A program made the position numbers and the translations under genes. A stretch of 63,992 bases of DNA, the filler included, from Candidatus Woesearchaeota archaeon (GTDB lineage: Archaea; Nanobdellota; Nanobdellia; Woesearchaeales; B72-G16), in NCBI GenBank assembly GCA_003650545.1. It is 4 parts of 4 records of this genome, joined end to end, with 100 filler letters (N's around TTAATTAATTAA, not from the genome) between each part and the next. Parts side by side here need not be neighbours in the genome. Positions count along the whole stretch, not along the records: positions 40,764 to 60,580 come from QMQO01000025.1; 3 more parts are not named here. The stretch is one strand, 5' to 3'. The notes beneath the pieces are model-generated. The model saw nothing but the letters and a program-made list of their open reading frames with translations, did not search any database and was not told the origin of the DNA. Position 1 is the first letter of the stretch, and each line of letters begins with the position of its first letter. Below are positions 43,382 to 59,206 of the stretch, in pieces.

Positions 43382-43515
43382 TTCAAATCACCATTGAGCG
43401 TTTATAAAAATAGTGAAGGCTGGGCCGACGTGCTGCGGCCCATATAAATTCATCTACGCCGGGCGCCAATAAACCGGCGGATACTCACGTAAAACAGTGT
43501 TTGAGTTTCGCTTGC

Positions 43516-45837
43516 TTATGCAGTGATGATCTCAACGATTGCCTTGTCAAATAAAACGTCAACGCCAAACCTGTGAGTTGCAACGATCTTTAGCTGTCTC
43601 TTACCGATTTCTTTCTGTGTTTCTACTAGTAATTCGCGTTTTGGAGCTAGAACTACTGCGTCGCGCCTCATGAGAAAGGCGTGATAACAGGTGACTCCAC
43701 CAGCATTTTCAGTTGTTGGAACCTTGCTTGATAATACGATTGGTATGCCCATGATTGAGTCCATTACAACTTTTCCGCCAGCGACACCGGCCTTACTAGC
43801 ATCCTTAAACCATTGTAATGAATTATTTAAATCGTGCCATTGCTTTGGTGACAGTACGAGTACGAGGTCGCTTGGAGTTACATCATATCCATTATCGGCA
43901 ATAGTCTTAAGAGCTTTTAATACGAGGTCAGCGGTGAAAGTATCGGCAGAATCAATTGAGTCAACATCAGTTGCATCTCCACCATAAATTTCAGTTATAT
44001 TCGTATCAGCCTTGAGAGTTGACAGTATAACTTCGTCTTCCTTGAGCTTAGCGGCTTTAGCGAGGCCAGCATTTATTGCTCTTATAAGCTCTTCGCCGAG
44101 ATCCTCAATGTCTTGATAATCAATGGTGCCGACTAAACCGTATTCGTTCAATGTTACTTCAACTGCGCTTACAGTCCAAGTAGTATCGGATGGCTCAGTT
44201 CCCTTCGTGAGCTGAGCGAACTCTGGAACAGTTATTTTTCTTATTCTTACTCTATCGCCTTGAGTTACTTGAACTACTCTTACAGCGCTCCTTAAGTTTG
44301 CAATAAGTCCAATTGGCTCCGCTTCAATTTCAGTCTTCCACGTTACTTGAGTTACACCAGTGCCAATAGATACAGCTTCTCTAAGATCCTTGACTGTCTT
44401 TAGAATTGGATCCTTCTCTTCCATCACAACACCCTTTCCTGCCTTCTCTTCTACCTTCTCCATTTTCTCCTCACCCTCAACCTTTTCTACTTCTTTTTTG
44501 CCCCCCACAGATTCCACAGCCGACGTGGGGGCAACCGTCGGCTGCGGCTCCTCAAGTTGATGAGGAGCATGAACCTCGTCACTTACTTCAAGCATTTCCT
44601 TGAATTCTGGCGGCTCTTTGTCGAACTGCTCATAGTGTGCACGTAAATGCTCATAAACTGCCCTTCGATCCTTAGCTGGAATATTGACGCCGCCACGCGC
44701 ACCCATCAATGCAGCCATAGCCGCAGCAACGCCGCGCCAAACGACGACAAGTTTACCGTCGATCACGTCGTGATGCGGCAATTTGTATGAGCCGAAGTTT
44801 TCCGGATCATTCTCGTCATACCATGCAAATGCCATTCGATATTTTCGCCAATCAATCTTGTCTTTATCGCCGGATCCATCACTACTTGCCCATTTTCGTA
44901 TTCTTGTGATTGCAGCGGTTTTATCCCACTCTCGTTCTTCAGGTGCCTTCGGCGTTTTATGTTTTGGTGGAACGGCTTCAGCAACTTCTTTGTCATTATT
45001 GTAGTTTTCTAGGCTAATTGTAACGTTGACTTGGGCTTCTGGGCCGACATCAATGTTTGCTTGTGGCTCGGAGGCTGCTGGCTCAACCTCAATTTTCGGC
45101 TCTGGCTTTTCAGCAACTGTCGGTTTAGCTTCAATATTGGGTTCTTTCACTTCTTTCAGGGAAACTTCTTCCTTTTCTTTCCCTTTCTCCTCAACTTTCT
45201 CTTGTTTTTTCTCACTCATATTCTCACAACAAACAAGTTTTTCAATGACCATGATATTCGCATGTGGATCGCCGGGCACGGCGACAAGTGAAAGCTCACA
45301 AAAACGAAGATTACGCGGTACACGAATACCATCAAGATAATCTATAAGCTCATAATCAGCTGCAATACTTACATGCTTAATAACACCGGCCCGAATCTTA
45401 TCGGCAACCTCATCATCATAAATTTCAGCTTCAAAAACAATTGCCCGCTCATCTTCATCCCAATAAGCATTCACGACTTTGCCAACCGCATTATTCACGT
45501 CAACATGCTCCAAGTAAACCGGCACGCCAATGAGGCTTTGAGCCGCCTTTTTCAACTCAGTCTCTAAATATAAATTCCAGTTGCGAGTTGCACCGGCATG
45601 AATGGCATAGCCGCGAATCCTTAATGGCTTAACATCAAGACGAAACTTCTCAAATGATATTCGCCATTCTCTTCGAAATTTCTGGAGCTGCGGCTCAATT
45701 GGCTTTGTCTCGTCAAGCATATATTTGTTGAGCCACATGCGATAATATTCTTCACCTTTTTCTTCACCATATATTTCGATGAAGTTGCGATAAATTGTCT
45801 CAAAGTCGGGATGACGATTAGGCGGCATAAAACTCAC
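43516..45837 (-). CDS. Prohead protease / scaffold / HK97-fold major capsid fusion
   Basis: Protease motifs IRGYA, LEH, VSI and ELSLVAVPGDP; acidic linker; C-terminal MCP (LVLSPKQW, IMGIPIVLS, HRFGV). Confidence 0.85.
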   Translation of the reverse strand: MSFMPPNRHPDFETIYRNFIEIYGEEKGEEYYRMWLNKYMLDETKPIEPQLQKFRREWRISFEKFRLDVKPLRIRGYAIHAGATRNWNLYLETELKKAAQSLIGVPVYLEHVDVNNAVGKVVNAYWDEDERAIVFEAEIYDDEVADKIRAGVIKHVSIAADYELIDYLDGIRVPRNLRFCELSLVAVPGDPHANIMVIEKLVCCENMSEKKQEKVEEKGKEKEEVSLKEVKEPNIEAKPTVAEKPEPKIEVEPAASEPQANIDVGPEAQVNVTISLENYNNDKEVAEAVPPKHKTPKAPEEREWDKTAAITRIRKWASSDGSGDKDKIDWRKYRMAFAWYDENDPENFGSYKLPHHDVIDGKLVVVWRGVAAAMAALMGARGGVNIPAKDRRAVYEHLRAHYEQFDKEPPEFKEMLEVSDEVHAPHQLEEPQPTVAPTSAVESVGGKKEVEKVEGEEKMEKVEEKAGKGVVMEEKDPILKTVKDLREAVSIGTGVTQVTWKTEIEAEPIGLIANLRSAVRVVQVTQGDRVRIRKITVPEFAQLTKGTEPSDTTWTVSAVEVTLNEYGLVGTIDYQDIEDLGEELIRAINAGLAKAAKLKEDEVILSTLKADTNITEIYGGDATDVDSIDSADTFTADLVLKALKTIADNGYDVTPSDLVLVLSPKQWHDLNNSLQWFKDASKAGVAGGKVVMDSIMGIPIVLSSKVPTTENAGGVTCYHAFLMRRDAVVLAPKRELLVETQKEIGKRQLKIVATHRFGVDVLFDKAIVEIITA

Positions 45838-47240
45838 TCCTTAAACATAAACTCGAAAACAAGCGGAAACTGATCACTATACCACATTTTTGCCTTCGAA
45901 AGATCCCACTCGGCTTTAGACTTGTCAAATATGATTGCACAAACCCATCGTCGGCCGCCGGTGCCCGTGACTTTCGCAACCATAATTTTTATACCTTGAT
46001 TAGCGTCAATTGAATAGTATCTTATGCTTGACTTGTCAATCCGGTTAGGATCAACAAGAATAAGCATAACTTGTTTCGGTGTTTCAACCCACTTTGCACG
46101 ATAGCCGAGCGCCTCTTTAGTCTCAGCTTCAGTTTCTTCTTCAATTGGAAATCCCATTTTCTGAAGCCACTTGCGGGCCGTCGATGTGTTGATGATGCTT
46201 ATTTCTGGCTTGACGAGTTGTGCAATATCGTTAAGCGTTAATTCATCAAGTTTGGTGCGTGGGAAGCCCCAATTCAGACGCGGTACTTCAGTTAAATCAT
46301 AACCTTCAATGAGTGGCTTGAAAATTTCGCTTTCAACTTTACGCTTAATATATCGCTGTAAACCGGCAACATGGCGCTCAACGGCTTCAAGCATTGCTCG
46401 GGCCGACGCTTCAGTTGCATTACGCAAATAACTTAAGAGCGGCGCGCCTAAACCCTCAAAAATATTGCGTTCAAGATATTCAATAAAATCAGCAAATCTT
46501 AATCGCGGATCAATCTCAATAACCTCATGTTGAATGTCGCCGCTTACAATTGGATCTTCATCCGGATCTAAATTGTTAAGAACAATTTTGAGGCTTTCAA
46601 CACTTGCCTCATCGCCGCATTTCCAAATTACTTTAGGTGCAGCATAGCGGTGAATGATTTTTTCCATATCTTCATTAAATTGCTTCTTAATCTCCAAGAA
46701 TTTAAGAACGGGTTTAATCATTGAAATGCCGTAGGCTTTCGTGCCGATTTCAAGATATTTTAAATGCACGATTTCTTCAGGTTTGAATTGTATTTCGCGG
46801 CCCGCGACAAGCTGCACATATCCTTCAATAACACCGTGCTCGTCACGTTTTACGCGAATATTCGTTGACGGTAACAATTTAATGTTAAGGAGTTTTTTAC
46901 CGTCAAAAACTTTTTCGATATACGCGTTGCCATAAATGAGCATGTTGCGAGTTGCTCTAAGAAGTAAGCCGTCAAGATTTACTTTAGCTGCAAATTCATC
47001 GACAATCTGCTTTGCACGCTCATCTTCACATGAAGTGTAGTAGCCGACGCCGGCAACCATTTCAGCGATGAAGTCAACGGCGGCCCGCACAACCGGATCA
47101 TTCAAATAGTAATACTCGTAAGTGCTGGGATCATCTTCAGGTGGCTCACCATAGTATTTGAAGAGGCTTGCAGCTGAGTCAACAATGCCTTTTTGCTTTT
47201 TAATTCTGAAAAATTTCTTTACGCGCTCAATAAAACTCAA
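45834..47240 (-). CDS. Portal protein with extra C-terminal domain
   Basis: DPVVRAAVD, IYGNAY, FKPEEIVHLK and YGIS. Confidence 0.9.
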   Translation of the reverse strand: MSFIERVKKFFRIKKQKGIVDSAASLFKYYGEPPEDDPSTYEYYYLNDPVVRAAVDFIAEMVAGVGYYTSCEDERAKQIVDEFAAKVNLDGLLLRATRNMLIYGNAYIEKVFDGKKLLNIKLLPSTNIRVKRDEHGVIEGYVQLVAGREIQFKPEEIVHLKYLEIGTKAYGISMIKPVLKFLEIKKQFNEDMEKIIHRYAAPKVIWKCGDEASVESLKIVLNNLDPDEDPIVSGDIQHEVIEIDPRLRFADFIEYLERNIFEGLGAPLLSYLRNATEASARAMLEAVERHVAGLQRYIKRKVESEIFKPLIEGYDLTEVPRLNWGFPRTKLDELTLNDIAQLVKPEISIINTSTARKWLQKMGFPIEEETEAETKEALGYRAKWVETPKQVMLILVDPNRIDKSSIRYYSIDANQGIKIMVAKVTGTGGRRWVCAIIFDKSKAEWDLSKAKMWYSDQFPLVFEFMFKE

Positions 47241-47332
47241 CTTTTCTTCCTCACAAACGGATTTTTTGCTTTATCAATGACTGTTTTCTGTGACCTTAGA
47301 AACTTGAAGAAGCGCTTGAATTGCTTGTTCAT
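47237..47332 (-). CDS. 31-aa basic peptide between terL and portal
   Basis: MNKQFKRFFKFLRSQKTVIDKAKNPFVRKKS; its TGA overlaps the portal TTG. Confidence 0.45.
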   Translation of the reverse strand: MNKQFKRFFKFLRSQKTVIDKAKNPFVRKKS

Positions 47333-47365
47333 CTCATAAATTATAATTGTCATAAGACAAGTTTC
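47332..47365 (-). promoter_or_regulatory. 34-bp repeated motif, copy A (candidate late promoter/operator)
   Basis: 31/34 identical to 51908-51941; TTGTC-N4-GACAA palindrome followed by a TATA-like box. Confidence 0.6.
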
Positions 47366-48726
47366 TAGAAAATTTTCTTCGCCTTATCAACAAAAATTCG
47401 CGGCTTAGTAAATGCAGCATAAACAGCTAACGCGAAAGCCCAAAGCCGATCGTCATGCGTTCCAGCAGGATGATAAAATTTTATGCGGCCATCCTTAGTA
47501 AGCTCAAACTTCTCAACATTTAATTCAGCAATGAGATCCTTATCATACGGAATCTTAACTAAGCCTTCTTGCATCTTCGCTTTCAGTAAACTCATTATTT
47601 CCTCTTTACGCGGCAATGTTAAGGTAATGCCGGTGACGTTTGATAAGCCGGCCCGCTTCATATCCTCAGTAATATATTCGCCAACACCTGTAACATCAGT
47701 ATAGATTCGCCGCACAAATTTCCAGCGATCATAAAGCGTCTTTACATAACCGATGACTGAAGCATAAGGCGTTTCAAGTGGAAATCTATGTAAGTGAATA
47801 AGCTTAACAACATCATTCTCTTTTTCAACAACTGTAACAACTGAATAATCGACTTTCTTACCGAAGTCAATACCAATATAGAGATCTTTACTGGTTATAC
47901 GCGCATCAAACGAATAATAATCAAGCTCAGCATCAATACACTTAGCAATTAAGTCTTGCGTCAACCATGAATCTTCATCTTCAACAAATTCAGCTTCAAA
48001 CTCCATTTTGAAACGCTGTGCCGGCAACTGTCGTTTCATCTCCTCAATAAAATCAAGACTTACAAGGCCGCATTTTACAACTTCGCGCCAATCTAGGAAA
48101 TGTTTGCTAAAGTTTGGATCAATACACATTTTGTAGAAAACTGAGTCGGTGCCCCAAGGCGTTGAACTCACAATAAGCGTGCCATCCGTCGTGCTAAGCA
48201 TTGGATAAAGAACTGAATAAAAAATGTCTTCATCATCTTTGAAAAATGCGGCTTCATCTGTAATTACTTGATGAGCCGTATAACCTCGCAAAAGATGAAC
48301 CGAACATGGAAGCGCGACAATTTGAGATCCATTCTTAAACCTTATGACGGTTCGCAGCATTTTTAAAACAAGCTGTCGGCGAAGATCTTTAGGCAAGCTT
48401 AGTAAGAAGCCGTGAATCTTATCCATCATGATCATGCTTTGACGTTTTGATGGTGCAACAATAAGCGTTAAAGTTTTCGGGTGAGTAACTGCAAACCAAA
48501 TGGCGCGGGCTGCAATTGTCGTTGACTTACCGCTCTGACGCGGCCACTTCACAACAATACGCTTAGATTGATCCCGCAACAACTTTTCTTGATAAGGCAA
48601 CGGCTTAAAACCAAGAATCTTCACGCAAAACTCAACCGGATCACTCGGCAACTTAACACGCTTATATTGTTGTTTAAGCAATTTATCAATGATTTTTGTA
48701 AGTCGTTCAAGCTCGGTTCGACTCAT
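47365..48726 (-). CDS. terL: Terminase large subunit
   Basis: Walker A RQSGKS, Walker B ITDEAA, STP, and nuclease GIDFG and HDD. Confidence 0.95.
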   Translation of the reverse strand: MSRTELERLTKIIDKLLKQQYKRVKLPSDPVEFCVKILGFKPLPYQEKLLRDQSKRIVVKWPRQSGKSTTIAARAIWFAVTHPKTLTLIVAPSKRQSMIMMDKIHGFLLSLPKDLRRQLVLKMLRTVIRFKNGSQIVALPCSVHLLRGYTAHQVITDEAAFFKDDEDIFYSVLYPMLSTTDGTLIVSSTPWGTDSVFYKMCIDPNFSKHFLDWREVVKCGLVSLDFIEEMKRQLPAQRFKMEFEAEFVEDEDSWLTQDLIAKCIDAELDYYSFDARITSKDLYIGIDFGKKVDYSVVTVVEKENDVVKLIHLHRFPLETPYASVIGYVKTLYDRWKFVRRIYTDVTGVGEYITEDMKRAGLSNVTGITLTLPRKEEIMSLLKAKMQEGLVKIPYDKDLIAELNVEKFELTKDGRIKFYHPAGTHDDRLWAFALAVYAAFTKPRIFVDKAKKIF

Positions 48727-49334
48727 AAAAATCGCCTTAATTGTGATTGGTTTGTTAATTCGATAATTGCATTCTTAAAGTTTAGAAGATTTATTTTAAA
48801 CAATTCTTCGTTTGTTAATTTGTTTATTGGCCGAGTGTGCTTTTTCCATCCTTGCCATATCAAACCATTTTTGACGAAAAAAGACGGTATTGTCGTGTCA
48901 AATCCATCAAAATTTAAAATTATTTCCGGCTTCTTTCCCATCCAACCTAAAAACCAACGTTTTTTATCTTTTGTAAATTCTAAAAATTCATTTAATGAAT
49001 AATCACGTGTAACCAATCCTTTTAAACATGGTTTTCGTGGAAAAGCAACCCACTCAAAATTTTGAGCAAAATTAAGTTCACTTTTAAAATGAAGCGGAAA
49101 AATCCAATTTATATGTGAAAATTTTTTAAGAAGCCATAATAAATCATAACGAAAATCAGGATAAACTACAAATTTAACTTCATTACCATATTCAACTAAA
49201 ATTTTAAGTAGTTTCTTCACATTTGGTTTACCAAAACGAACAAATTCATTGTCAACAAACTCCGGAAAAGTAAGAAAACCAAGCTCTTTCACATATTTTA
49301 TTTGATAATAATAACATGGTATTGCAATAATCAT
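48723..49334 (-). CDS. TGT/DpdA-like TIM-barrel protein (AT-rich insert)
   Basis: Ordered motifs FVDN, VVYPD, IFPLH, WVAF, WFLG and GFDTT parallel the transglycosylase barrel strands. RBS GGTGTGA precedes the ATG at 49334. Confidence 0.5.
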   Translation of the reverse strand: MIIAIPCYYYQIKYVKELGFLTFPEFVDNEFVRFGKPNVKKLLKILVEYGNEVKFVVYPDFRYDLLWLLKKFSHINWIFPLHFKSELNFAQNFEWVAFPRKPCLKGLVTRDYSLNEFLEFTKDKKRWFLGWMGKKPEIILNFDGFDTTIPSFFVKNGLIWQGWKKHTRPINKLTNEELFKINLLNFKNAIIELTNQSQLRRFL

Positions 49335-49413
49335 AATCACACCTAGAGTATTTTGGTTGGAATATTCTTGTGAGACGCTCAAGTTCACTTCGACTCATAA
49401 AATCACCAGAAAT

Positions 49414-49522
49414 ATTGGGCCGGAGGGCCTGAATCTGTGATGAAAACCAGGCTAGATGATTGGTGATTTAAGGCTTAGCAACCGAGGCACCTGCAGCCAG
49501 CGGGATACCCTTCCGGCCCAAT
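49414..49522 (+). ncRNA. Candidate box C/D guide sRNA 2 inside an 11-bp outer stem
   Basis: GTGATGA-12 nt-ATGA-ttg-GTGATTT-12 nt-CCGA (49437-49485), enclosed by ATTGGGCCGGA/TCCGGCCCAAT. Confidence 0.6.
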
Positions 49523-49636
49523 TCAATATTTTCTTAGAACGTAGTATAAATTTATTCTGGTTGGAATATGCTGATGAGAATGTGAAGAGATCCCTCCCTT
49601 CATTGAGGCCCTACATGCCTCTCTGGTGAGGATCAT

Positions 49637-49918
49637 CTATTCCATCATCTCTTCGAGGAGCTTTAGTTTTTCTTTGAGTAATTCGAGTTGCTTCTTTATG
49701 TCTTGCTCGTCATAGCTGTTGAGTATTGAGTTTATTGTTTGAGCAATATATGCAGCAAGCCTTGCCCACTTTTCCCTTCGCTTCACATTGAGTCTTTTAT
49801 CTGTTGAGTAGCGATAACAAATGTCAAAAAGCTCCTTAAGTTTCTCAATTATTTTTTCACGTTCAAGCTGCGTGTCAATAGCCATTAAACTCTCAAATAC
49901 GCTTTTCATTTCACTCAC
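49637..49918 (-). CDS. Putative terminase small subunit
   Basis: Small helical protein with a coiled-coil end upstream of terL; positional call only. Confidence 0.5.
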   Translation of the reverse strand: MSEMKSVFESLMAIDTQLEREKIIEKLKELFDICYRYSTDKRLNVKRREKWARLAAYIAQTINSILNSYDEQDIKKQLELLKEKLKLLEEMME

Positions 49919-49919
49919 C

Positions 49920-50096
49920 TTAAATCACCTTCTTCACTTTTCGCTTTACTTCGCGGATTTGCTCGCGCACTGTTTCAATTTCGCTTTCATAGTCGAAGTC
50001 GAAGGCCTGCCAAATTTTTAGCTGCATTTCCGGCTTATCCATCGGGTTATAGAATTTTTCGAATAGTCTTAATGCGAGGGGTTTTCGAACTCCCAT
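49920..50096 (-). CDS. 58-aa hypothetical protein (below ORF-track cutoff)
   Basis: GGGGAG RBS; MGVRKPLALRLFEKFYNPMDKPEMQLKIWQAFDFDYESEIETVREQIREVKRKVKKVI; fills the gap exactly. Confidence 0.65.
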   Translation of the reverse strand: MGVRKPLALRLFEKFYNPMDKPEMQLKIWQAFDFDYESEIETVREQIREVKRKVKKVI

Positions 50097-50758
50097 TCAA
50101 CTACTCCCCGCGTCAACTTATCATATTTTTTAAGTTTCTTCACGTCTTCAAAATACTCTTGATCATCAAACCATGCAAAACCATCATAAATAATGCCGCG
50201 ATAACCGCGTTCTGCTGCTGCTTTATCGATGATCGGCAATGGATTAGGGCCGGCAGTAGTTTCTATAATACATATTTTATTCTTATATGTCGTTTCAACC
50301 CACGCATGAAAACCTAAGAACTGTTTTGTTTTTGCGTCGATGATCGCGCCTAACACAACTTTACACGGTATGTTTTTCGCTAAGAGTAGTGAAGCAAGAA
50401 GTAATGATGTGTCAATACATAAGCCGTATTTGACTCTGAGGGTTTGGGCCGGCTTCAACCAGCCATATTTTGAGCTTAATTCGAAATGATAGATTGGGCC
50501 GGCTGCTTTGAAGATTAAGACTTTCCGCTCAGTTGACGGCTTACCTTTCCACGTGAATGGATATTTGATTAGGCGGCATACGGTTCGTGTTGCTTCTTCG
50601 ATGATCCGGTCGGGATCTTTATGTCTTATGCGTTTTACAATGTCTAGTACGGCAGGATTATCTTTTTGAATGTAGTCAAAAATATAGTCGAGTTCGCTGA
50701 CAAGGCCGTAATTAACGGTGATTGGCTTTGAATTGCGAGTATAACGTTTAAGCGTCAT
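50069..50758 (-). CDS. Transglutaminase-like cysteine protease
   Basis: GLCIDTSLLLASLL, HAWVE and IIETT (Cys-His-Glu triad). Start placed at MTLKR. Confidence 0.8.
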   Translation of the reverse strand: MTLKRYTRNSKPITVNYGLVSELDYIFDYIQKDNPAVLDIVKRIRHKDPDRIIEEATRTVCRLIKYPFTWKGKPSTERKVLIFKAAGPIYHFELSSKYGWLKPAQTLRVKYGLCIDTSLLLASLLLAKNIPCKVVLGAIIDAKTKQFLGFHAWVETTYKNKICIIETTAGPNPLPIIDKAAAERGYRGIIYDGFAWFDDQEYFEDVKKLKKYDKLTRGVVEWEFENPSH

Positions 50759-50762
50759 GTTT

Positions 50763-50978
50763 TCACACTTCAAAAAGTTTTGCAAATAATACAATGAAAC
50801 TGAGAAGAATAACGAAAATCGTCAAAAGTAGATAAGCTGAAATTGTAATGTAAACTAAGAAGATGATCCAGCCGGGCAATGATCCAGGCCGAAAAACATC
50901 AATTAAAATAAGTGCAATCAGCAAAATAAAGAATGCAAGCGTGTTAAAGTCAAATTCAACTTTCCTATCACTTTCCAT
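50763..50978 (-). CDS. Small two-TM membrane protein
   Basis: Two hydrophobic helices. Confidence 0.65.
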   Translation of the reverse strand: MESDRKVEFDFNTLAFFILLIALILIDVFRPGSLPGWIIFLVYITISAYLLLTIFVILLSFIVLFAKLFEV

Positions 50979-51008
50979 GATGATCCCACCAAAATGGTGG
51001 TGGGGGGT

Positions 51009-51080
51009 TGGGCCGGCTCAGCTAGCGACCAAGTTCATCATCGATTATTCAGCTTTGGGAGGATCATCATCGCCGGCCCA
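51009..51080 (-). ncRNA. Box C/D guide sRNA 1
   Basis: TGGGCCGGC-G-ATGATGA-TCCTCCCAAAG-CTGA-ATAATCG-ATGATGA-ACTTGGTCGCTAG-CTGA-GCCGGCCCA: four consensus boxes, 11- and 13-nt guides, a 9-bp terminal stem and a 3-nt k-turn bulge; intergenic. Confidence 0.9.
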
Positions 51081-51090
51081 CAAGAACCTG

Positions 51091-51318
51091 CTATTTCTTT
51101 GCTTCTTCGGCTTTTGCGTCAAAGTATGCTTTCATAAACATGGCATCAAGTGGCAGTAATGGTGAAATGAGCATTGTAATGTCTTGAACATTAAAGCCTT
51201 TCAAAAGCCCGACAAACAATGCTGCAAATGTGCCGCCAGTCCAAGCTACTGCAAGCCAGAATCTGTAATCTCGCTCTTTCTTCGTCAATTTTACTTCTTC
51301 TTTTACTTCTTTACTCAT
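51091..51318 (-). CDS. Holin-like small membrane protein
   Basis: Two TM segments and a charged C-terminus; resemblance only. Confidence 0.5.
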   Translation of the reverse strand: MSKEVKEEVKLTKKERDYRFWLAVAWTGGTFAALFVGLLKGFNVQDITMLISPLLPLDAMFMKAYFDAKAEEAKK

Positions 51319-51929
51319 TTAAACCACCTTTCCAAAATCTTACGAGTGTAAATATATGCAAAGAATGTGAAAGTTAGGATCGTGCCGAAAGTCGAGATGA
51401 GTGGCAGCCAATCGTAAAGCCAATCCAAACCTGCAAACGCAAGCATCTCGCAGAATGCGTAAATGCCTTGTGCAAACGCGTTTGTCATTAATGCGAATTT
51501 ATCGTCAATGTCTTGGCCGGGCCGCAATGCAAGAATCATATAGAGAATGAAAACCGAACCGCCGCCCATAAATGCAACAGCGATGATTCGATTAAGCGAT
51601 TCAGGCCATGCAGTTGGGAAAACAGCGGCGCCATGCGGCATTAATTTAATGTAGCCGTCGCCGCCAAGCCAGCGTAAAACAACGAGATGACCAAACTCAT
51701 GTATCGGCAAAGTCATGAGCCAAAAAATAAGATATACAAATGTAAATGAAAGAATCTTGAAAAGCGTGGGCCGACGTGCACAAGCAAGATAAAGTTGCAC
51801 TCGCAAATCACGTCGCTGTAAATATAAAGTTAAAGCGATGCCACCGACAATTAATGAAGTAAGCAATTCGAAAACAATGGGATTCAAGGCGGATCCTCTC
51901 ACAAAATTCTCACAAAATATAGTTGTCAT
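51315..51929 (-). CDS. M50-like membrane zinc metalloprotease (start may be TTG near 51887)
   Basis: PIHEFGH within a TM helix and AFMGG. Confidence 0.7.
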   Translation of the reverse strand: MTTIFCENFVRGSALNPIVFELLTSLIVGGIALTLYLQRRDLRVQLYLACARRPTLFKILSFTFVYLIFWLMTLPIHEFGHLVVLRWLGGDGYIKLMPHGAAVFPTAWPESLNRIIAVAFMGGGSVFILYMILALRPGQDIDDKFALMTNAFAQGIYAFCEMLAFAGLDWLYDWLPLISTFGTILTFTFFAYIYTRKILERWFK

Positions 51930-51941
51930 AAGACAAGTTTC
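51908..51941 (-). promoter_or_regulatory. 34-bp repeated motif, copy B
   Basis: Heads the leftward late gene block; matches 47332-47365. Confidence 0.6.
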
Positions 51942-52117
51942 ACGTCACAGCAATATGCAGTGAATCATCATTTTACTCATCACGTGCAGCAGAAAATGAA
52001 GCTTAGAACCGAGATAGAAATGTCAAAAACACTTAAATAACGAAAATAATAAAATATTTTATGAACCCCAGCGGTTTAAAGAACCGCGGGGAAATTGAAA
52101 AACAAGGTGAAAATTAA

Positions 52118-52447
52118 ATGTCGATGGCGGCGGATGAGGCCGCAACAATTATTATGCGAGCAGCATCACTCTATCATAAAGCAATTGAAGATCAGCTTAA
52201 TTGCCTCGCAGAAAATGACGTTGATTTTACAGTTTCATATACTGCATTAAAAAATGATCGCGGCCACTGGAGCTTAAAACTTAATGATCCTTCAAATGTT
52301 AATGAAAAATTTGTTAAACAAATTCTCTATTTGATGCGGGATGCAGCATATAATTTTGCAGCAATAATTAGAAGCCTCGGCTTCAACACTGACGTAAAAA
52401 TAAGCAGCAAAAAAGGAATCTTAATTATTTGGAAAAAAGTTAAGTGA
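52118..52447 (+). CDS. Hypothetical viral protein
   Basis: GGTGA RBS, upstream TTAAATA box and a leader hairpin at 52066-52091. Confidence 0.7.
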   Translation: MSMAADEAATIIMRAASLYHKAIEDQLNCLAENDVDFTVSYTALKNDRGHWSLKLNDPSNVNEKFVKQILYLMRDAAYNFAAIIRSLGFNTDVKISSKKGILIIWKKVK

Positions 52448-53126
52448 ATTTTGTTTTAAGTTCTTCAAGCTGCTTTATTGCTTCTTCAATGTCACTTAAA
52501 CTTTTAATTGTGAATGTAAGTGTTATTGCTTTCTCTCCTGCTTCTTTAATCTTGAAGTTTGGTGTTTTAATTATCTTTTTGAAGTATAGTGTTGAGTCGC
52601 GGTAATCTGTTTCACGTCCACAGTCTTCTGCTGTTTTTGCATAGAAATTATCTTGTAAATCATGTTTGATTAAGCGAACTTTTATTCTTGCGAGTTGTCG
52701 GCCTGCCTCTGATCCACGTGGATATCTTCTTGATCCTCTGTAAGCCCAGCATACGCGAATTGCTTCAGCAGTATCTGAATCTTCAATACTATCAATGTCT
52801 AGAACGAGATAATTCTCAGTTTCTTTTATTACTTTGACTTTCACTGCAACCAGCTGATAAGTAACTTTATGAACTTCACTTGCTGCTCCAAGAACATCAA
52901 TGATGTCGGCCGGCAGAATTTCATTAACATTTAACTCAACTTCCTCAACGCTAGGCTCGCTAAAAACTATTAGTTTTGCTTTTTCCAGCTCTTCTTTTGA
53001 TCCGCGGAAAATAAAGCCTCCATAACGTCCTTCACTTGCATATCTTATTTCATCATTCTCCATCAAAAAAGTAAGACACTTCTTTTCTGAAGGAAGTCGA
53101 AACACGAGTTTTTTAAGAGGCTCCAT
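52440..53126 (-). CDS. Hypothetical viral protein
   Basis: 228-aa ORF with its own TATA box and GGTGG RBS. Confidence 0.75.
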   Translation of the reverse strand: MEPLKKLVFRLPSEKKCLTFLMENDEIRYASEGRYGGFIFRGSKEELEKAKLIVFSEPSVEEVELNVNEILPADIIDVLGAASEVHKVTYQLVAVKVKVIKETENYLVLDIDSIEDSDTAEAIRVCWAYRGSRRYPRGSEAGRQLARIKVRLIKHDLQDNFYAKTAEDCGRETDYRDSTLYFKKIIKTPNFKIKEAGEKAITLTFTIKSLSDIEEAIKQLEELKTKFT

Positions 53127-53255
53127 CTTTTTCCACCCAGTAGAAAATTTAGAACAAGAAGTATATAAACTTTTCTATTCAGGTTCCCTTTGAATAGAAC
53201 TGATTCCGAAAAATTTAAATACAACTACAACCACATTTTCTACCGGGTGGAAATC

Positions 53256-53459
53256 ATGAATGAAATGGTAAAAATTAAACTACCATATTTTCCATTCATA
53301 AAATATGTACCATATAAGCAGTTGCTCAATGAAGTTAGAGGTACATTTCTTGAACAAGCTTTAAAACAAATAAAGGAAACTGGGCGAAAATATGCAGAAG
53401 TAAAGTGTCCTTGTTGTGGCAGAATCATTAGAATTTCTATCGAAGAAGTTGAGAGGTGA
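53256..53459 (+). CDS. Small hypothetical protein with CPCC motif
   Basis: Start reassigned to the ATG after the GGTGG RBS. Confidence 0.65.
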   Translation: MNEMVKIKLPYFPFIKYVPYKQLLNEVRGTFLEQALKQIKETGRKYAEVKCPCCGRIIRISIEEVER

Positions 53460-53465
53460 TTTATA

Positions 53466-53684
53466 ATGCAAGTTCAAGTTTTTTCTTTGGAGCGGCTTCG
53501 TGAGTTTGTTGAGTCGCAGCGTTGCAGCTGGTGTGGCGGTCGGCTGAAAATGAAGTATTATGATCATCCAAATGGGGTTGAAACTGAGGTTGGCAAAGTC
53601 TGGGTTTATGGTGAATGTCAGAAATGCGGGTACCAGTGGGCGTTATGGAAACTCTTAAGGAGAAAAAGTAGAAGTGTTACGTGA
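53466..53684 (+). CDS. Zinc-finger protein
   Basis: CSWC..CQKC; GAGGTGA RBS. Confidence 0.75.
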   Translation: MQVQVFSLERLREFVESQRCSWCGGRLKMKYYDHPNGVETEVGKVWVYGECQKCGYQWALWKLLRRKSRSVT

Positions 53685-53916
53685 AGGTGGAAGAGTGATG
53701 AGTGAGCGTAAATTGAAGTCAATTAAAGTTGAGTTTAATGTGTGGCAGGAGCTTGTGCGGCTTCAAGGTGAATTGCAGAAAAAACAAGGTAAGCGAGTGT
53801 CTATGAGTGACACAATACAATATTTATTAGATAGATATTATATAACAAGCAGTAAAAAAGTTAGCGATAGTTATACAAAATCCGGCGGCGATGACAATTA
53901 CGTTGAAGTCACTTAA
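53674..53916 (+). CDS. RHH/antitoxin-like DNA-binding protein
   Basis: KSIKV..VWQEL..SMSDTIQYLL pattern. Confidence 0.65.
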   Translation: MLREGGRVMSERKLKSIKVEFNVWQELVRLQGELQKKQGKRVSMSDTIQYLLDRYYITSSKKVSDSYTKSGGDDNYVEVT

Positions 53917-54277
53917 TTTTCATTTTTCTTTTTTGTTTTTCTAAGTCTAGTGCTGCTTTTATTCTGAAGTTGCCTTGCTCATCTTTGACGATTGAAAGTG
54001 ATCTTACATGTTTTGAGTTTCTTCGTCTTGCTTGTGCAACCCGCCACAAATACCGCATCTTAATTCTATTCTTCTTCACATAATCTTGCAGCCACCGCCG
54101 CTTATATTCGCGGCGAAAACGCTTTTGACACTCATCACATCTAGTTGCCGGCCCACGTTTCCTAAAGATTCTAAAACATTCGCGGCAAAGCCGGCCCAAA
54201 ACAACAACCAAAATGTATCTAACCATCACACATTCAATATCACGGATTTTCTTATGAACTTCCTTTTCAGTTCTCAT
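53909..54277 (-). CDS. Basic zinc-finger protein
   Basis: CREC..CDEC followed by an Arg-rich helix. Confidence 0.65.
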   Translation of the reverse strand: MRTEKEVHKKIRDIECVMVRYILVVVLGRLCRECFRIFRKRGPATRCDECQKRFRREYKRRWLQDYVKKNRIKMRYLWRVAQARRRNSKHVRSLSIVKDEQGNFRIKAALDLEKQKRKMKIK

Positions 54278-54450
54278 TTATCCTCACGCTCCTTTACTTT
54301 TCTTTTGAATTGAAGAATTGCCCAGCCTTTTTTGCGAAAACAAATTGTTTTGATGTGTTTTTCTTCAATCCATGACAAACAAAACCATTTCCTACCTATA
54401 CCATCAAATTCATATAATTCAATATCTTTGTGTTTCATTATCAACCGCAT
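54274..54450 (-). CDS. 58-aa hypothetical protein (below cutoff)
   Basis: MRLIMKHKDIELYEFDGIGRKWF...; ATGA overlap with the next gene. Confidence 0.55.
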   Translation of the reverse strand: MRLIMKHKDIELYEFDGIGRKWFCLSWIEEKHIKTICFRKKGWAILQFKRKVKEREDK

Positions 54451-54731
54451 TTTCCTACACCCTTTTTTTCTTGTTGTTTGATGAGTTGCTCAATGATTTC
54501 GTTTTGAACGTCGCGGTAGAAGTCAGCGCCAAAGATTGCATGCACAAGGCCGCATTTTGGGCATACGAGTTCTTTTAAATGTATTGCGCCGATGTATTCA
54601 ACGACTTTAAGTTTTGCGCCGCATTCAATGCAGTGTGAAAGTCGAATGTCAAGCTGCGGCGGTAAATGTGAGTCTATAACGACTTTATACATCCAGCCGG
54701 TCGATGCTACGAGGATCATGCGCTTACCCAA
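54441..54731 (-). CDS. Zinc-ribbon protein
   Basis: CIEC..CPKC. Confidence 0.65.
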   Translation of the reverse strand: MGKRMILVASTGWMYKVVIDSHLPPQLDIRLSHCIECGAKLKVVEYIGAIHLKELVCPKCGLVHAIFGADFYRDVQNEIIEQLIKQQEKKGVGKCG

Positions 54732-55015
54732 ACCCTATACCTCCATTCATGTGATGATGATCTTGCATTACAAATTTCATAATACATGATCTTAGAATGC
54801 TGCTGCACACGCTGAAGCTTACCAATAATAACTTCAAGATCACGCAAAAGCTCCCGCCTCACATCATCAAGCTCACTCATAACATTCCCAAGCTCATCAA
54901 CCTGAAGATTTTCAACTGAACTTTTTAGATCATCAAGCAACTCAACATAAAACTGCGAAGACTTCCACACCCTAAACAATCTCTCAAGCAGTAAACCAAT
55001 ATTCTGAGATTTCAA
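54716..55015 (-). CDS. Coiled-coil hypothetical protein
   Basis: Overlaps both neighbours in the operon. Confidence 0.6.
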   Translation of the reverse strand: MKSQNIGLLLERLFRVWKSSQFYVELLDDLKSSVENLQVDELGNVMSELDDVRRELLRDLEVIIGKLQRVQQHSKIMYYEICNARSSSHEWRYRVWVSA

Positions 55016-55809
55016 AATGATACCCCCTCCCCCTTTTTCATATTATTTTTATTTTCACATCTATCACAATGTTCTCGAAATTCACAAGCAACATAGCATT
55101 GCCAACGCATAGACTCATTTTGCTTCGCTTCGGCCGGCGGCAACGTCTTCGTAATAATAAATTCATGAAGCTGCTTCACACGATCAATAAGCATATCAAG
55201 TCGATCACGATCAAACACGACTGGACAAACCTTAATCTGCAACGTAGGCTTCTCAACATAAACAATTGCGCCATAACGGCAGCGCATCGCATACAAGTAA
55301 ATCATAAGCTGATTCACATGCTCAGAATAAGGTAATTCAACATCAACATGCTCCTTACGCTCACGATCCCACTTTCTAAATGACTTTATGCTTTTCACTT
55401 CAATGACAATTGGCTCTTTAAATCCGCGAAGCAGAATCATATCGTCGTAGCGACCGCGGATCTGAATATCATCAATAATAATTGCGAATTCACCTTCATT
55501 GTGCAGCAACTCAATCTTCTCACTTTTCTCCAAAACTTCTTTAATGAAGCTGTGAATAATGTTGCCGGCGTGAAAGATCCTGAGCTTTTCACTTGAAACG
55601 GGTTTCGGCGGTGAAGTATAAAGATAAAAGAGCCGCCTTAAACAATACGAAATCATTGATGGATAGTAAACGCCAACAACTAATGGTCGTTCTTCACGCC
55701 TTAAATATTCATCGATTGCTTGATTAATCGTGCCTTCAAGATCAAGTGATAAGAAGCTATTTTCGGCGAGTTCGGGCCGGCTGTATGGAATTAATATGAC
55801 TTCACTCAC
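55012..55809 (-). CDS. Cas4-like PD-(D/E)XK nuclease (solo)
   Basis: PSMISYCLR, GRYD, IEVKS, QLMIY and C-terminal CxxxCxxxxxC Fe-S cysteines. Confidence 0.85.
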   Translation of the reverse strand: MSEVILIPYSRPELAENSFLSLDLEGTINQAIDEYLRREERPLVVGVYYPSMISYCLRRLFYLYTSPPKPVSSEKLRIFHAGNIIHSFIKEVLEKSEKIELLHNEGEFAIIIDDIQIRGRYDDMILLRGFKEPIVIEVKSIKSFRKWDRERKEHVDVELPYSEHVNQLMIYLYAMRCRYGAIVYVEKPTLQIKVCPVVFDRDRLDMLIDRVKQLHEFIITKTLPPAEAKQNESMRWQCYVACEFREHCDRCENKNNMKKGEGVSF

Positions 55810-55810
55810 G

Positions 55811-55919
55811 TTATCATCACTCCTTCTTGAATTATCATCACAGTGAGTGATGGTAATACGCGTGAAAAGTGATGATAATCTACGGAAAAGTGATGATGAG
55901 TGATGATAAGTGATGATAA
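55811..55919. repeat. Iteron cluster 1 (seven GTGATGATAA-like 10-mers)
   Basis: Reverse copies at 55811 and 55832; forward copies at 55847, 55869, 55890, 55900 and 55910. Confidence 0.85.
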
Positions 55920-55932
55920 TCTGTGAGAAACA

Positions 55933-56139
55933 CTAAGCATTTTCTTCACTCTCCTCAAAATATTCACATGAAGCACAATCACAATGCTTACAAACTTCGT
56001 CAGTTATCCACTGTCGATCACAGATGATCTCGTCCAATATTTTGCAGCGGGTTAGCAGTAATCCGCCTGAAGTTACGTGTTCAGCGTGTTTGCATTTAAA
56101 GCAAGGAGGTTCAAAATCCTCAAAATCTTCAGACTTCAT
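55933..56139 (-). CDS. Cys-rich small protein
   Basis: PCFKC plus five further cysteines. Confidence 0.65.
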   Translation of the reverse strand: MKSEDFEDFEPPCFKCKHAEHVTSGGLLLTRCKILDEIICDRQWITDEVCKHCDCASCEYFEESEENA

Positions 56140-57766
56140 TTTTATTCCACTCCATAAGTTTTAAGTAGAGATTACCGGCCCGACGCTCTAAGAATAGTTT
56201 ACCCTCATCGATGAGTTCTTCGATGATTGGATCGGGGTTTGCTAGTCCGTTGAGTGCACAGGTGTTCAGCAATTGTCGATATTCTATGCCTTCCGGCCGG
56301 TGTTTCTCTATGAGTGTGATGATCCAGCGCTTAAAACTTAATTTTTCTAGTGTTTTCTCTGTATTACCATCACTCATCATCACTTCCATTGTTTTATCAT
56401 CACTCGTTATCATCACTTTTTCCGGCGTTATCATCACAGGATGTGATGATAAAAACAGGTCTAGTGATGATGGAATGTAGCGGCGTGCAAGTCGAACTAT
56501 AAGTTTTTCATCGTATTTAATGGCGATTCGACTGTCGTCGTTACTCATTCGCATTTTCTTGAAGCCAAGCTTCTTCAAAATTTTGCCAAGCTGTGTAGGT
56601 CGCATTTGATCTTTTTCGTCTCGATTCATATTGATTTGATCAAGAATAGTTTGTAATGGTAATTTGTTTTTCTCGACGAGATCTTTACATTTGATGATTG
56701 CGTCGATGACTTCAGCTTCAATTGTTGTTCGTTCTTCTTCACGTATTATTGTTGCTAGGCTTTCACCATATTTAATCAAATTTTGTTTTACGTCGGCCGG
56801 CGTCACAGCGAGCGGTGCAATGAATAATTCAGTTAGGCGGCCGTTCTCACCTATCCGTACGATTTGATCCTCAGTTACGTTAAAGTCATCTTCAATTAGT
56901 TTTTGTATGCGGTATCGTAACAGTTTGCTGCGGAGATTGGCGGCCCAGTCAAAATCAAGCATAATCTTCACTTGTCGCACGGCGCGGCTCATATTAATTA
57001 TGAAGCATCTTGACTGAAATGTCGGTGCTAAAAGAGTTGTGCATGCAACTGCCTTGAAGCCAAACACGTCATAAAGGCCGAGTTCAAGTTTATTTTCACC
57101 AACTTTTTCAACTCGTATTGCACATTGTCCGCGTCGATATCCAGCGTTTAGGAGTGCCATGACTTCAAGCATGTCGCTGCGATTATAGATTTCAGCTTCA
57201 TCAAGAATGATTGTTGGGTGCCATGCTTCACATGCGCGGAATAATCCGGCTGGTCGAATGCTTGTTGACATTAAGCCGCGATAACTAAGTTGCCACAAAA
57301 CTTCTAGGCAGCGCGTTTTACCCGAGTTGAGTGGGCCGATGAAAAACAGGTAAGGTACTACATTGAATTTTTCGGGGATCCACGTCGCCATGATCCAGCT
57401 CGCCATAAGCGCGTAATGCTCCTTCTCGCTAAAATCAATATGCTGATAAACATAATCATAGATTTCTTGCCACAACTCATCTTCATTAACGCGATCAACC
57501 GGCGGCTTCGGAATAGGCGGCCAAGGCAGCTTCTTCAAAGCAACCTCATTAATCTCATAGCCATTTTCATCAACACCGAGATAACGTACTGCAGGCCGCT
57601 GCACATGCAAAACAAACTTATCACGCTCTCCACGCACAAAATAAGCTTCACAATAAGCGTATTGACCATCATCACACATTACTTGCTCAAACAGAAACAT
57701 ATTCCGCTGATCAAAATAACCTGGCGAATACTTTACAATAACCTTCTCACGACTATTACGCCTCAT
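56129..57766 (-). CDS. P-loop AAA+/helicase-like replication protein with C-terminal wHTH
   Basis: GPLNSGKT, ILDEAE, LLNAGY and the QSRC arginine finger. Confidence 0.75.
   Translation of the reverse strand: MRRNSREKVIVKYSPGYFDQRNMFLFEQVMCDDGQYAYCEAYFVRGERDKFVLHVQRPAVRYLGVDENGYEINEVALKKLPWPPIPKPPVDRVNEDELWQEIYDYVYQHIDFSEKEHYALMASWIMATWIPEKFNVVPYLFFIGPLNSGKTRCLEVLWQLSYRGLMSTSIRPAGLFRACEAWHPTIILDEAEIYNRSDMLEVMALLNAGYRRGQCAIRVEKVGENKLELGLYDVFGFKAVACTTLLAPTFQSRCFIINMSRAVRQVKIMLDFDWAANLRSKLLRYRIQKLIEDDFNVTEDQIVRIGENGRLTELFIAPLAVTPADVKQNLIKYGESLATIIREEERTTIEAEVIDAIIKCKDLVEKNKLPLQTILDQINMNRDEKDQMRPTQLGKILKKLGFKKMRMSNDDSRIAIKYDEKLIVRLARRYIPSSLDLFLSSHPVMITPEKVMITSDDKTMEVMMSDGNTEKTLEKLSFKRWIITLIEKHRPEGIEYRQLLNTCALNGLANPDPIIEELIDEGKLFLERRAGNLYLKLMEWNKNEV
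56364..56473. repeat. Iteron cluster 2 inside the replication gene
   Basis: Reverse copies at 56364, 56374, 56394, 56407 and 56428; forward copies at 56443 and 56464. Confidence 0.85.
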
Positions 57767-58071
57767 TTCAGTCCCTCACAAAGAAATTCAACTATACCAG
57801 CGAGAATGAAGACAAAACTGAGATGAGCTGTAATTAAGAGAATTGTCGCGAAAATGATGTACATAATTATTTTGAAGAAATCAATTGTGTATTGTGAGTT
57901 GAGATCTGGACCGCCGATTATGCGATAAATTTCATCGGTTAAATACCATGCGCCTGTAATTGTGCAAATATATATAATTATTGTTAAAATAATTGTAAGT
58001 GCTAAAAGCAACCCACTTTTAATTGCGAAATCAGCCTTTTCGAGTAAAGAGGAAAAAATAAGGAATTTCAT
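57763..58071 (-). CDS. Two-TM membrane protein
   Basis: Hydrophobic helices; ATGA overlap with the next gene. Confidence 0.6.
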   Translation of the reverse strand: MKFLIFSSLLEKADFAIKSGLLLALTIILTIIIYICTITGAWYLTDEIYRIIGGPDLNSQYTIDFFKIIMYIIFATILLITAHLSFVFILAGIVEFLCEGLK

Positions 58072-58077
58072 GGCATT

Positions 58078-58884
58078 TCACTCCATAATGTGCATATCTG
58101 GCTGCTTGTTGCGGCCCGGCTCTGGGCAAATCCAAATTGAAATGATGCCGATCTTGTTTGGCGGGAGTAAGCGACGCTCAGCGTATGATGCGGTTTTCGT
58201 TATCTTCCAGCCTCGCAGAAATGTGCCGGTAATCGCAAAGATCCTTTTGCGCTCAACGATTTTGCAGGATCTTGTGACGCGAAGCTGAATATTACGGAAA
58301 CCGGCAACTTCATGTACATGACCAACAAGATATATGTCGGCGTCAAAGTATCTTGCAAGATCCTCAACGCGATTTATTTTGCCGCCGATCCGCCGGCCCG
58401 AGTAATAGCCATGAGTCGCAAATATGTCGATGGTGACGGTGTGGCGGCCGCGTTTGAAAACAAGCTTTACAAATGCAGCAAAATCAAGATATGGCACACC
58501 AAGCTTATATGCAAGCTCATCAACCCAATTATGATAATGACGGCGTCTTAGTAAGTCATCATGGTTTCCAGTCAACAAACCTAGACAATTATGTTTGATT
58601 GGCTCAAAAAGCTCATAAATGAATTGATACTGTTTTTCTGGCGTGTAAAGCTCGGGATCAATTACATCTAAATCAAGTCGTTTCTCATTTGGATGAGGAA
58701 AAATTGCGTTGGCATAGTCACCCATTCCGATCCAGAGCGCATCTTGATGTAAGATGAAGTCGCGGATCTCAATTAGTTTATCTTTATCGCAATTTCGGTG
58801 ACCAACATGAAGATCGCCGAATGGAATGAGCAGAAATGTGTCGCCGGGCTTTTCATATTCGATGATGTGTTTTACAACGCGCAT
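58078..58884 (-). CDS. Calcineurin-like metallophosphoesterase
   Basis: GDLH, GD, GNHD, THG and GHVH. Confidence 0.9.
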   Translation of the reverse strand: MRVVKHIIEYEKPGDTFLLIPFGDLHVGHRNCDKDKLIEIRDFILHQDALWIGMGDYANAIFPHPNEKRLDLDVIDPELYTPEKQYQFIYELFEPIKHNCLGLLTGNHDDLLRRRHYHNWVDELAYKLGVPYLDFAAFVKLVFKRGRHTVTIDIFATHGYYSGRRIGGKINRVEDLARYFDADIYLVGHVHEVAGFRNIQLRVTRSCKIVERKRIFAITGTFLRGWKITKTASYAERRLLPPNKIGIISIWICPEPGRNKQPDMHIME

Positions 58885-58891
58885 AGAAACG

Positions 58892-59206
58892 TCACCACTC
58901 TAAACCATGCTCATACTTAATATGCCGGGAAAACTCAACCCAATCAGTGAATCTTTCACCACAAAACATGCAGCGAACAGCTTTACCGCGTTTCAGCATT
59001 GCGCGGATTCGTGCGCGCTGCCTAACACGCGCATACTTAACTCTAACAAGCCGCCCACATTTTGGGCAGCGCTTCCTACCTGCCTTATCCGTCTTAAGCT
59101 CTTCCTTAGGAATCCATTTCCCACAGTGTTTGCAATAAGCATACTTATCATATTTTCTGAAGACAGGTCTTTGGATCGGCCACGCATTCAAAATAACAGA
59201 ACTCAC
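58892..59206 (-). CDS. Double zinc-finger protein
   Basis: CKHC..CPKC and a C2H2 finger CMFC..HIKYEH. Confidence 0.75.
   Translation of the reverse strand: MSSVILNAWPIQRPVFRKYDKYAYCKHCGKWIPKEELKTDKAGRKRCPKCGRLVRVKYARVRQRARIRAMLKRGKAVRCMFCGERFTDWVEFSRHIKYEHGLEW

Follow-up and report, generated by a model that had tools for sequence, protein, structure and literature searches.

The question raised by this locus is whether a tailed virus of sediment archaea can carry a genuine gene for a box C/D guide RNA and, if so, what such a guide would do for it. The window (the whole stretch of 63,992 nucleotides that was analysed, filler included) consists of four concatenated contigs, and the sequence-only reading had placed a complete C/D guide RNA in what it took for a viral locus. 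Viral genes do lie on both sides of it, with the correction that the virus accounts for only positions 40764-60580 of the four contigs. Our analysis showed that a head-tail virus of archaea does carry such a gene, the one for this RNA (RNA 1 in what follows) being a real box C/D guide gene and one of two. Its parts are as follows.

51009..51080, minus strand: C/D guide RNA 1, with a 9-bp terminal stem, predicted k-turn geometry and four consensus boxes
51080-51072 / 51017-51009, minus strand: arms of the terminal stem
51064..51070, minus strand: box C
51053..51063, minus strand: D' guide, 11 nt
51049..51052, minus strand: box D'
51035..51041, minus strand: box C'
51022..51034, minus strand: D guide, 13 nt
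51018..51021, minus strand: box D

The boxes, the guides of 11 and 13 nt, the perfect 9-bp stem and the G-A-U bulge described in the sequence-only reading were all confirmed when we read the sequence again. The stem is followed by a one-base bulge extension, box C, the 11-nt guide, box D', a 7-nt linker, box C', the 13-nt guide and box D; its 9 bp are perfect, with a predicted pair probability of 0.99 at 37-75 C, and the C/D end, with its 3-nt G-A-U bulge, reads as a k-turn. The covariance-model check that had been proposed was borne out in part: RNA 1 matches the Rfam family snoPyro_CD (RF00095) with an E value of 2.1e-5, but its score of 42.1 bits stays below the gathering cut-off of 45. The best host C/D score in 151 genomes of the Bathyarchaeia is 41.6 bits, lower than that of RNA 1, and none reaches 45. 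C/D families at the RNA 1 position make up 10 of the 12 Rfam matches with E<=5 in the window, and RNA 1 is the sole four-box match, strict or loose, in the 1.64-Mb assembly (G000). Both strands of 20 Mb of simulated order-3 Markov sequence gave no strict and nine loose four-box matches, and among the 61 IMG/VR loci that fit the box pattern the 9-bp stem occurs only in this contig, the others having at most 5 bp.

RNA 1 sits in a late operon between a stop codon and a ribosome-binding site. The contig, C25, and the genes that surround the two RNAs are listed below; L709 is its closest relative.

40764..60580: contig C25, partial genome of a head-tail virus, 19.8 kb, IMG/VR record IMGVR_UViG_3300014911_000035
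50979..51090, minus strand: 112-nt intergenic cassette around RNA 1
51091..51318, minus strand: 75-aa hydrophobic ORF upstream of RNA 1, its stop codon 10 nt ahead of the stem
50763..50978, minus strand: 71-aa hydrophobic ORF downstream of RNA 1, with a homolog in L709
50985..51004, minus strand: 7-bp hairpin over the Shine-Dalgarno-like site of the 71-aa ORF (predicted pair probability 0.8-1.0 at 37-75 C)
51315..51929, minus strand: 204-aa membrane protein with an HExxH motif, 71% identity in L709
50069..50794, minus strand: transglutaminase-like protein, common to 22 of 239 terminase-relative loci
49637..49918, minus strand: 93-aa ORF, probable small terminase as judged by its position, with homologs in 52 of the 239 loci
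48723..49388, minus strand: 221-aa ORF adjoining RNA 2, DUF6610-like by language-model features
47365..48726, minus strand: terminase large subunit, nearest relatives in Bathyarchaeia
43516..47240, minus strand: portal and protease-major capsid fusion genes

Its terminase, portal, HK97-type capsid and tail genes make C25 a member of the Caudoviricetes (head-tail viruses). Pfam and PHROG matches among its 30 ORFs cover the terminase, portal, HK97-type capsid, head-tail adaptor and tail tube, and further matches in the same set point to a metallophosphoesterase and a Cas4-like nuclease. Matches to the Nop, fibrillarin or L7Ae families are absent from all 30 ORFs, in line with the sequence-only reading, which had recognised no such protein in the contig. 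The 221-aa ORF (48723-49388) resembles DUF6610 clusters with a score of 0.94, its structure prediction having a pLDDT of 38, and it contains some motifs that we take to be reminiscent of guanine-transglycosylase-like proteins. Elsewhere in the contig, a 46-nt imperfect inverted repeat lies between divergent genes (53130-53253), and short repeats of the TGATGATAA type, direct as well as inverted, cluster beside and within a 545-aa gene (55801-55929 and 56360-56472); the latter are origin-like and cause spurious C/D-like and miRNA-model matches.

The host of this virus is probably a Bathyarchaeon, as judged from the fact that its terminase relatives belong to that class and that C25 is a composition outlier in the assembly. 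Among the matches listed, Bathyarchaeia account for 78 of the 80 named genome loci with terminase relatives and for 6 of the 8 taxon-named related proteins, Hecatellales being presumably part of the class. C25 has 40.5% GC and a tetranucleotide distance of 0.029, vs a median of 0.008, while the bin core lies at 33-35% GC. Contigs C23 (window 1-20506, 46.5% GC) and C105 (60681-63992, 39.5%) also differ from this core, so that the assembly probably holds other foreign contigs, and C25 is probably mis-binned. The bin itself looks DPANN-like from its 16S and its order of small genomes; its 16S gene (L067, G000:C2:12700-14291) is about 110 nt longer than the model, with apparent short insertions. 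We rejected this DPANN-like genome as the host on the grounds of terminase relatives and composition. The target pattern of the RNA 1 D guide has three matches in the assembly, one being RNA 1 itself, and none reads as a tRNA D-loop. A direct host link by DNA or spacer identity was limited to matches of 63-86% in 46 of 401 Bathyarchaeia genomes, nearly all of them in terminase, portal, capsid or replication genes.

The sequence-only reading had supposed that the guides reprogram the host methylation machinery; the guides of both RNAs are complementary to Bathyarchaeia tRNAs. The D guide of RNA 1 pairs over 11 bp with the tRNA-Gln D-loop in six of eight genes from other Bathyarchaeia, one or two of the pairs being G-U, and the remaining two D-loops have no fit; the nucleotide at N+5 forms a G:C pair on C16, and the duplex has a calculated energy of -18.9 kcal/mol. 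Equally good shuffled D guides make up 1.2-2.4% when compared with the 38 tRNAs of one host, and 3.4-6.8% when rRNA is added, which makes the match to tRNA-Gln suggestive, not decisive, and only marginally significant on its own. The D' guide is in register with positions 32-37 of tRNA-Gln(UUG), N+5 falling on G36, an arrangement found in 0.046% of shuffles. The pairing comprises 6 bp in mature tRNA-Gln and 7 bp in L737; in L736 it extends into the intron, where 10 of 11 positions pair and 9 bp are reached. We regard G36 as a weak candidate target with these 6-9 bp. An intron at 37/38 of tRNA-Gln was found in 3 of 161 Bathyarchaeia genomes by one pattern; a second pattern, run over 401 genomes, gave three matches, two of which are real tRNA-Gln genes with such an intron. 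No tRNA-Gln gene among those compared pairs over at least 9 bp with both guides: L736 fits the D' guide and not the D guide, while L737 fits the D guide and has only 7 bp for D'. tRNA-Pro(UGG) as a D' target gave fewer pairs than tRNA-Gln. Ten rRNA sequences offered at most 8 bp to the D' guide and 9-11 bp, including one to four G-U, to the D guide, and rRNA was set aside in favour of tRNA because these pairings lie within the range of shuffled guides.

A second, degenerate C/D RNA, RNA 2, lies 1.5 kb away on the opposite strand, antisense to the late genes. It was absent from the sequence-only reading, which also named no targets.

49414..49522, plus strand: C/D guide RNA 2 within a 14-bp outer stem (arms 49414-49427 and 49509-49522), antisense to late genes
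49437..49485, plus strand: core of RNA 2
49437-49443, plus strand: box C, perfect consensus
49444-49455, plus strand: D' guide, 12 nt, predicted for the tRNA D-loop, C16
49456-49459, plus strand: box D', AUGA
49463-49469, plus strand: box C', degenerate, two mismatches
49470-49481, plus strand: D guide, 12 nt, predicted for the tRNA-Ser(GCU) anticodon loop, U36
49482-49485, plus strand: box D, CCGA

Three of the boxes of RNA 2 are imperfect; Rfam gives no match, and our own covariance model (R1) scores it at 11.3 bits with an E value of 0.16. We accepted it as a C/D guide because the complementarity of its guides to tRNA, not its boxes, decides the case. Compared with 107 tRNA genes, the D' guide scores at least 10 in 6 (Gly, Ser, Pro and Val) and at least 9 in 14, with N+5 always at position 16, and the D guide forms 10 Watson-Crick bp with the anticodon arm of both tRNA-Ser(GCU) genes (2/2), N+5 being U36. 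In one of these, L536, both guides match the same gene with 10 + 10 Watson-Crick bp; in the other, L517, position 16 is a U and forms a G-U wobble at the N+5 of the D' guide. Our controls comprised 186 loose candidates, 139 from 8 Mb of simulated sequence, 15 from the rest of the assembly and 32 from the terminase relatives. None of the 186 had both guides at 10 Watson-Crick bp, by thresholds that were set after RNA 2 had been found, and four had one guide at 10 bp, two of which represent a known host family (the L117/L180 guide, thus recovered). We rejected a decayed tRNA gene on the minus strand, since the anticodon piece precedes the D-loop piece. No promoter was identified for RNA 2; sigma-70 promoter models are not applicable to archaea. 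As far as their predicted targets go, RNA 1 and RNA 2 are of one design, addressing positions 16 and 36 of one tRNA with the guides swapped, and by virtue of this common design the two support each other.

We consider it probable that these virus-borne dual guides load host L7Ae, Nop5 and fibrillarin and methylate host tRNAs, likely protecting them, as paired accessory cargo of a virus of Bathyarchaeia. The fit of the guides to host tRNAs suggests that the virus borrows the methylation enzyme of its host to alter these tRNAs; we infer the expression, RNP assembly, methylation and purpose of both RNAs. Fibrillarin and Nop5 are present in all five genomes tested (the assembly and four Bathyarchaeia), and C/D RNAs were detected in 39 of 151 Bathyarchaeia genomes. 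RNA 1 would be trimmed from the late polycistronic transcript, shielded by the host L7Ae, Nop5 and fibrillarin bound to its boxes. Such a route resembles a model proposed for the maturation of cellular sRNAs, in the available text of which insertion into a transcribed region suffices and bound proteins prevent further trimming (PMC7994747). RNA 2 would be made from its own antisense transcript. One guide of each RNA would open the D-arm (N+5 = 16) and the other the anticodon loop (N+5 = 36). RNA 2 would target tRNA-Ser(GCU), its D-loop guide suiting several other tRNAs as well; RNA 1 would target tRNA-Gln, with an anticodon-side pairing that attains sufficient length only where the pre-tRNA carries a suitable 37/38 intron. 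A 2'-O-methyl group would then be placed by host fibrillarin at C16 and at position 36, and the benefit to the virus that we think most likely is that these tRNAs stay intact or stable during infection, for example against tRNA-cutting defences.

Ribose methylation blocks nucleases that depend on the 2'-OH. It is possible, although this is a more tentative proposal, that the acquired guides constitute an RNA-programmed counter-defence, redirecting fibrillarin to positions 16 and 36 of tRNA-Gln and tRNA-Ser(GCU) and shielding them from tRNA-cleaving immunity. The use of RNA by viruses to counter tRNA-cleaving defences is described in the available text of recent reports (PMC11464382, PMC13191261). 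Guides of this kind would be the guide-RNA counterpart of phages with nuclease-resistant tRNAs, and L709 seems to carry a tRNA in the same slot: the position equivalent to RNA 2 holds a tRNA gene with anticodon CCC (45.7 bits). This tRNA gene, at 11500-11573 on the plus strand of L709, has an A at position 33 and a non-standard T-loop.

The same RNPs may instead inactivate host tRNAs, by unfolding them, blocking splicing at 37/38 or impairing decoding through methylation of the third anticodon base, and so throttle translation or defence, a purpose that we judge unlikely. To our knowledge, position 36 is not a usual site of ribose methylation, 34 being the usual one, and this counts against the reading we prefer; that both anticodon-side guides give N+5 = 36 would suit inactivation, as would the facts that the D' guide of RNA 1 covers the splice-site bulge in intron-bearing tRNA-Gln and that each RNA spans the D-arm and the anticodon arm. 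By standard decoding, however, CAA and AGY are read only by these tRNAs, and the virus does not avoid them: CAA makes up 96 of its 158 Gln codons and AGY 121 of its 262 Ser codons, and the late genes use them at 54/84 and 71/151, comparable to the value of 0.62 for GAA among Glu codons. Nor does C25, in which no tRNA gene was found, carry one that could replace the targets. We think protection of tRNAs likelier than shut-off because the virus uses CAA and AGY codons normally, the protective purpose being a hypothesis.

There is also a small chance that the two RNAs are passenger cargo, cellular tRNA-guide genes gained by recombination and useless to the virus. In its favour are the absence of the guides from L709 and the 239 related loci, the existence of cellular guides for C16, and host C/D genes that adjoin proviral elements (L180, L117) and offer a capture route. 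The sequence-only reading had proposed that the boxes be sought in related viral contigs, and here they proved not to be conserved: no counterpart of RNA 1 was found in L709, nor in the set of 239 terminase-relative loci (2.96 Mb, three collections contributing their best 80 each) by a motif scan and a covariance model built from 22 sequences. In L709, 17 of the 30 ORFs recur in unchanged order with 33-77% identity, a single edge match of 16 residues exceeding this range; the best covariance score in L709 is 9.7 bits, with no loose candidates and no C/D RNA. The genes flanking RNA 1 are separated by 3 nt in L709 vs 112 nt in C25, homology being supported at E 2e-4 for the downstream gene and weak, at E 0.019, for the upstream one. 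The RNA 1 cassette is thus lineage-specific cargo and not a trait of the family, and no homologous viral copy of RNA 1 or RNA 2 was found that could show covariation.

The two real C/D matches among the 239 loci, L117 and L180, represent one conserved host family, one guide of which fits C34 of tRNA-Leu(CAA). The L180 copy is chromosomal, 1.1 kb from tRNA-His beside a viral element; this conserved Bathyarchaeia RNA lies at L180:7158-7222 and L117:164-229, both on the minus strand, near terminase-bearing integrated elements. A cellular C16-type guide pattern matched in 34 of 251 Thermoproteota genomes vs 5 control matches, and 9 of the 20 loci inspected look like C/D RNAs. At about 1460-1530 in L721-L727 we also observed a cellular family of C/D RNAs in which the D guide fits position 16 of a tRNA and the second guide seems able to pair with the T-arm; Rfam gave no match for the two loci tested.

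Several observations are difficult to reconcile with useless passengers. The two cassettes occupy opposite strands at a distance of 1.5 kb and follow one target design, the boxes of RNA 1 are perfect and it outscores the best host RNA of the 151 genomes, and both stems are built on, and begin with, the heptamer GGGCCGG, of which C25 holds 17 copies vs 1.2 expected. This heptamer is without enrichment in four related loci, and GGWCC is depleted in C25 (2 vs 7 each). No host RNA bearing the D guide of RNA 1 appeared among the 50 matches inspected of about 130 obtained by pattern in 301 genomes, none of which has a C' box ahead of the guide, and neither a loose DNA search of 401 Bathyarchaeia genomes nor the pattern revealed a host copy.

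We give little weight to an action of RNA 1 in cis, through a k-turn RNP that would stabilise or process the late mRNA, or through a pairing that would time synthesis of the small membrane protein. Of the 18 positions in box C and the D' guide, 17 can pair with 50977-50994, a segment that includes the downstream ribosome-binding site and start codon, at -22.7 kcal/mol; none of 966 other windows of the contig and 1.1% of shuffles equal this, and control of archaeal mRNAs by L7Ae has been published (PMC5539422, available text). Against this, the terminal-stem fold is more favourable than the paired one by 5-6 kcal/mol, and the start site lies under the local hairpin in both states, so that no switch would result. 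Taken by itself, the guide does not reach significance (9.8% of shuffles do as well) and has a mismatch two bases from N+5, and a role in cis leaves the four perfect boxes, the tRNA-Gln match and the antisense RNA 2 unexplained.

RNA 1 might also be read as an attachment site (attP), or as what remains of an integration into a host C/D gene, and integration is frequent among related terminase elements. We hold this to be highly improbable: RNA 1 is a whole gene in the middle of a late operon and not a 3' tail, no integrase was matched among the 30 ORFs of this partial genome, and the loose search of 401 genomes gave no host copy. A chance pattern, a chimeric assembly or host DNA is largely refuted and scarcely credible, since the score below the gathering cut-off, the mixed bin and a related strain in run X2 with zero cover over the locus (uninformative) stand against the Rfam E value, the Markov control, the IMG/VR stem comparison, the viral flanks and a single continuous Logan contig, possibly the source data, which covers 50048-53655 with zero differences and the same depth as its neighbours.

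The modification of host tRNAs by paired viral guides, which we favour, has close parallels among cellular RNAs. In the available text on Pyrobaculum, sR126 is predicted to act on C36 and G16 of tRNA-Ala, a rare dual guide, and sR131 (C16) and sR39 (G16) are predicted guides for tRNA position 16 (Lui et al., 2018, PMC6009581). These RNAs share with the viral ones the box layout, the N+5 rule and position 16 of the tRNA D-loop, and sR126 also shares the rare feature that both guides address one tRNA, at positions 16 and 36. According to the same text, the second guide is an orphan in about 80% of tRNA-targeting RNAs, RNAs that direct both guides to one tRNA are rare, and the tables contain one predicted case for position 36 (PMC6009581). 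Unlike the Pyrobaculum sRNAs, the viral RNAs are two genes in the late region of a head-tail virus and point to tRNA-Gln and tRNA-Ser(GCU), the targets being predicted on both sides; the word 'virus' does not occur in the text of Lui et al. available to us.

Three viral systems invite comparison, each as described in the available text of the papers cited. The Epstein-Barr virus v-snoRNA1 is likewise a canonical C/D RNA encoded by a virus; it binds the fibrillarin and Nop proteins of the host, and the lytic cycle induces it (Hutzinger et al., 2009, PMC2718842); it differs in belonging to a eukaryotic virus and in its proposed role as a miRNA-like precursor acting on a viral mRNA rather than in tRNA methylation. 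The TIGR-Tas systems of phages and archaeal viruses resemble our RNAs in their virus-borne dual-spacer guides, box C/D-like anchors and Nop-domain fold, but consist of arrays beside their own Nop-domain gene, with CCA/UG motifs, no k-turns and DNA targets (PMC12045711). None of these hallmarks was seen in C25, where no ORF of the 30 matches Nop and RNA 1 and RNA 2 are single units outside any array. Phage tRNAs that rescue infection from tRNA-cleaving defences, such as the tRNA-Lys of T5 against PARIS (PMC11464382), are similar in that a non-coding RNA of the virus affects the tRNA pool, with the difference that such a tRNA replaces a tRNA instead of guiding the modification of a host tRNA, and that the link to defence is here only a hypothesis.

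The sequence-only reading knew of no C/D guides described in archaeal viruses, and we too found no paper on them. We take this as weak evidence of novelty, the literature covered being mostly outside subscription journals. The terms sRNA and snoRNA do not occur in the available main text of three surveys of archaeal viruses (PMC10541130, PMC13465236, PMC13573593), and a literature search for Cm16 or Um16 in tRNA gave unrelated work only. Five pattern scans of IMG/VR for other viral C/D RNAs, in one of which 80 of at least 119 loci were examined, returned, among the matches listed, tandem repeats, matches within ORFs, C25, the host-type RNA in L117/L631, and L069. The last of these (L069:3001-3050, minus strand, IMGVR_UViG_3300005573_000237) has four consensus boxes and 12-nt guides near a contig end; its guides fit conserved 16S and 23S sites over 10-12 bp including G-U pairs, but the motif lies within the 5' portion of a 390-aa frame, and its score is poor. 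In the related viruses L071 (about 8010-8060) and L072 (about 3950-4000) we noticed a common GC-rich non-coding hairpin motif upstream of late genes, which has no Rfam match.

Archaeal box C/D guides have so far been treated as cellular housekeeping genes, and a 2021 review states, in the text available, that their mobile features 'remain to be discovered' (PMC7994747). The degenerate state of RNA 2 implies that genes of this kind escape covariance models, and scanning the genomes of archaeal viruses in a target-aware manner should bring more of them to light. The predictions are precise, namely C16 and position 36 of two tRNAs. If they are true, the tRNA modifications of a host would be rewritten by about 60 bases and no protein, and guides would have a route by which to spread between genomes.
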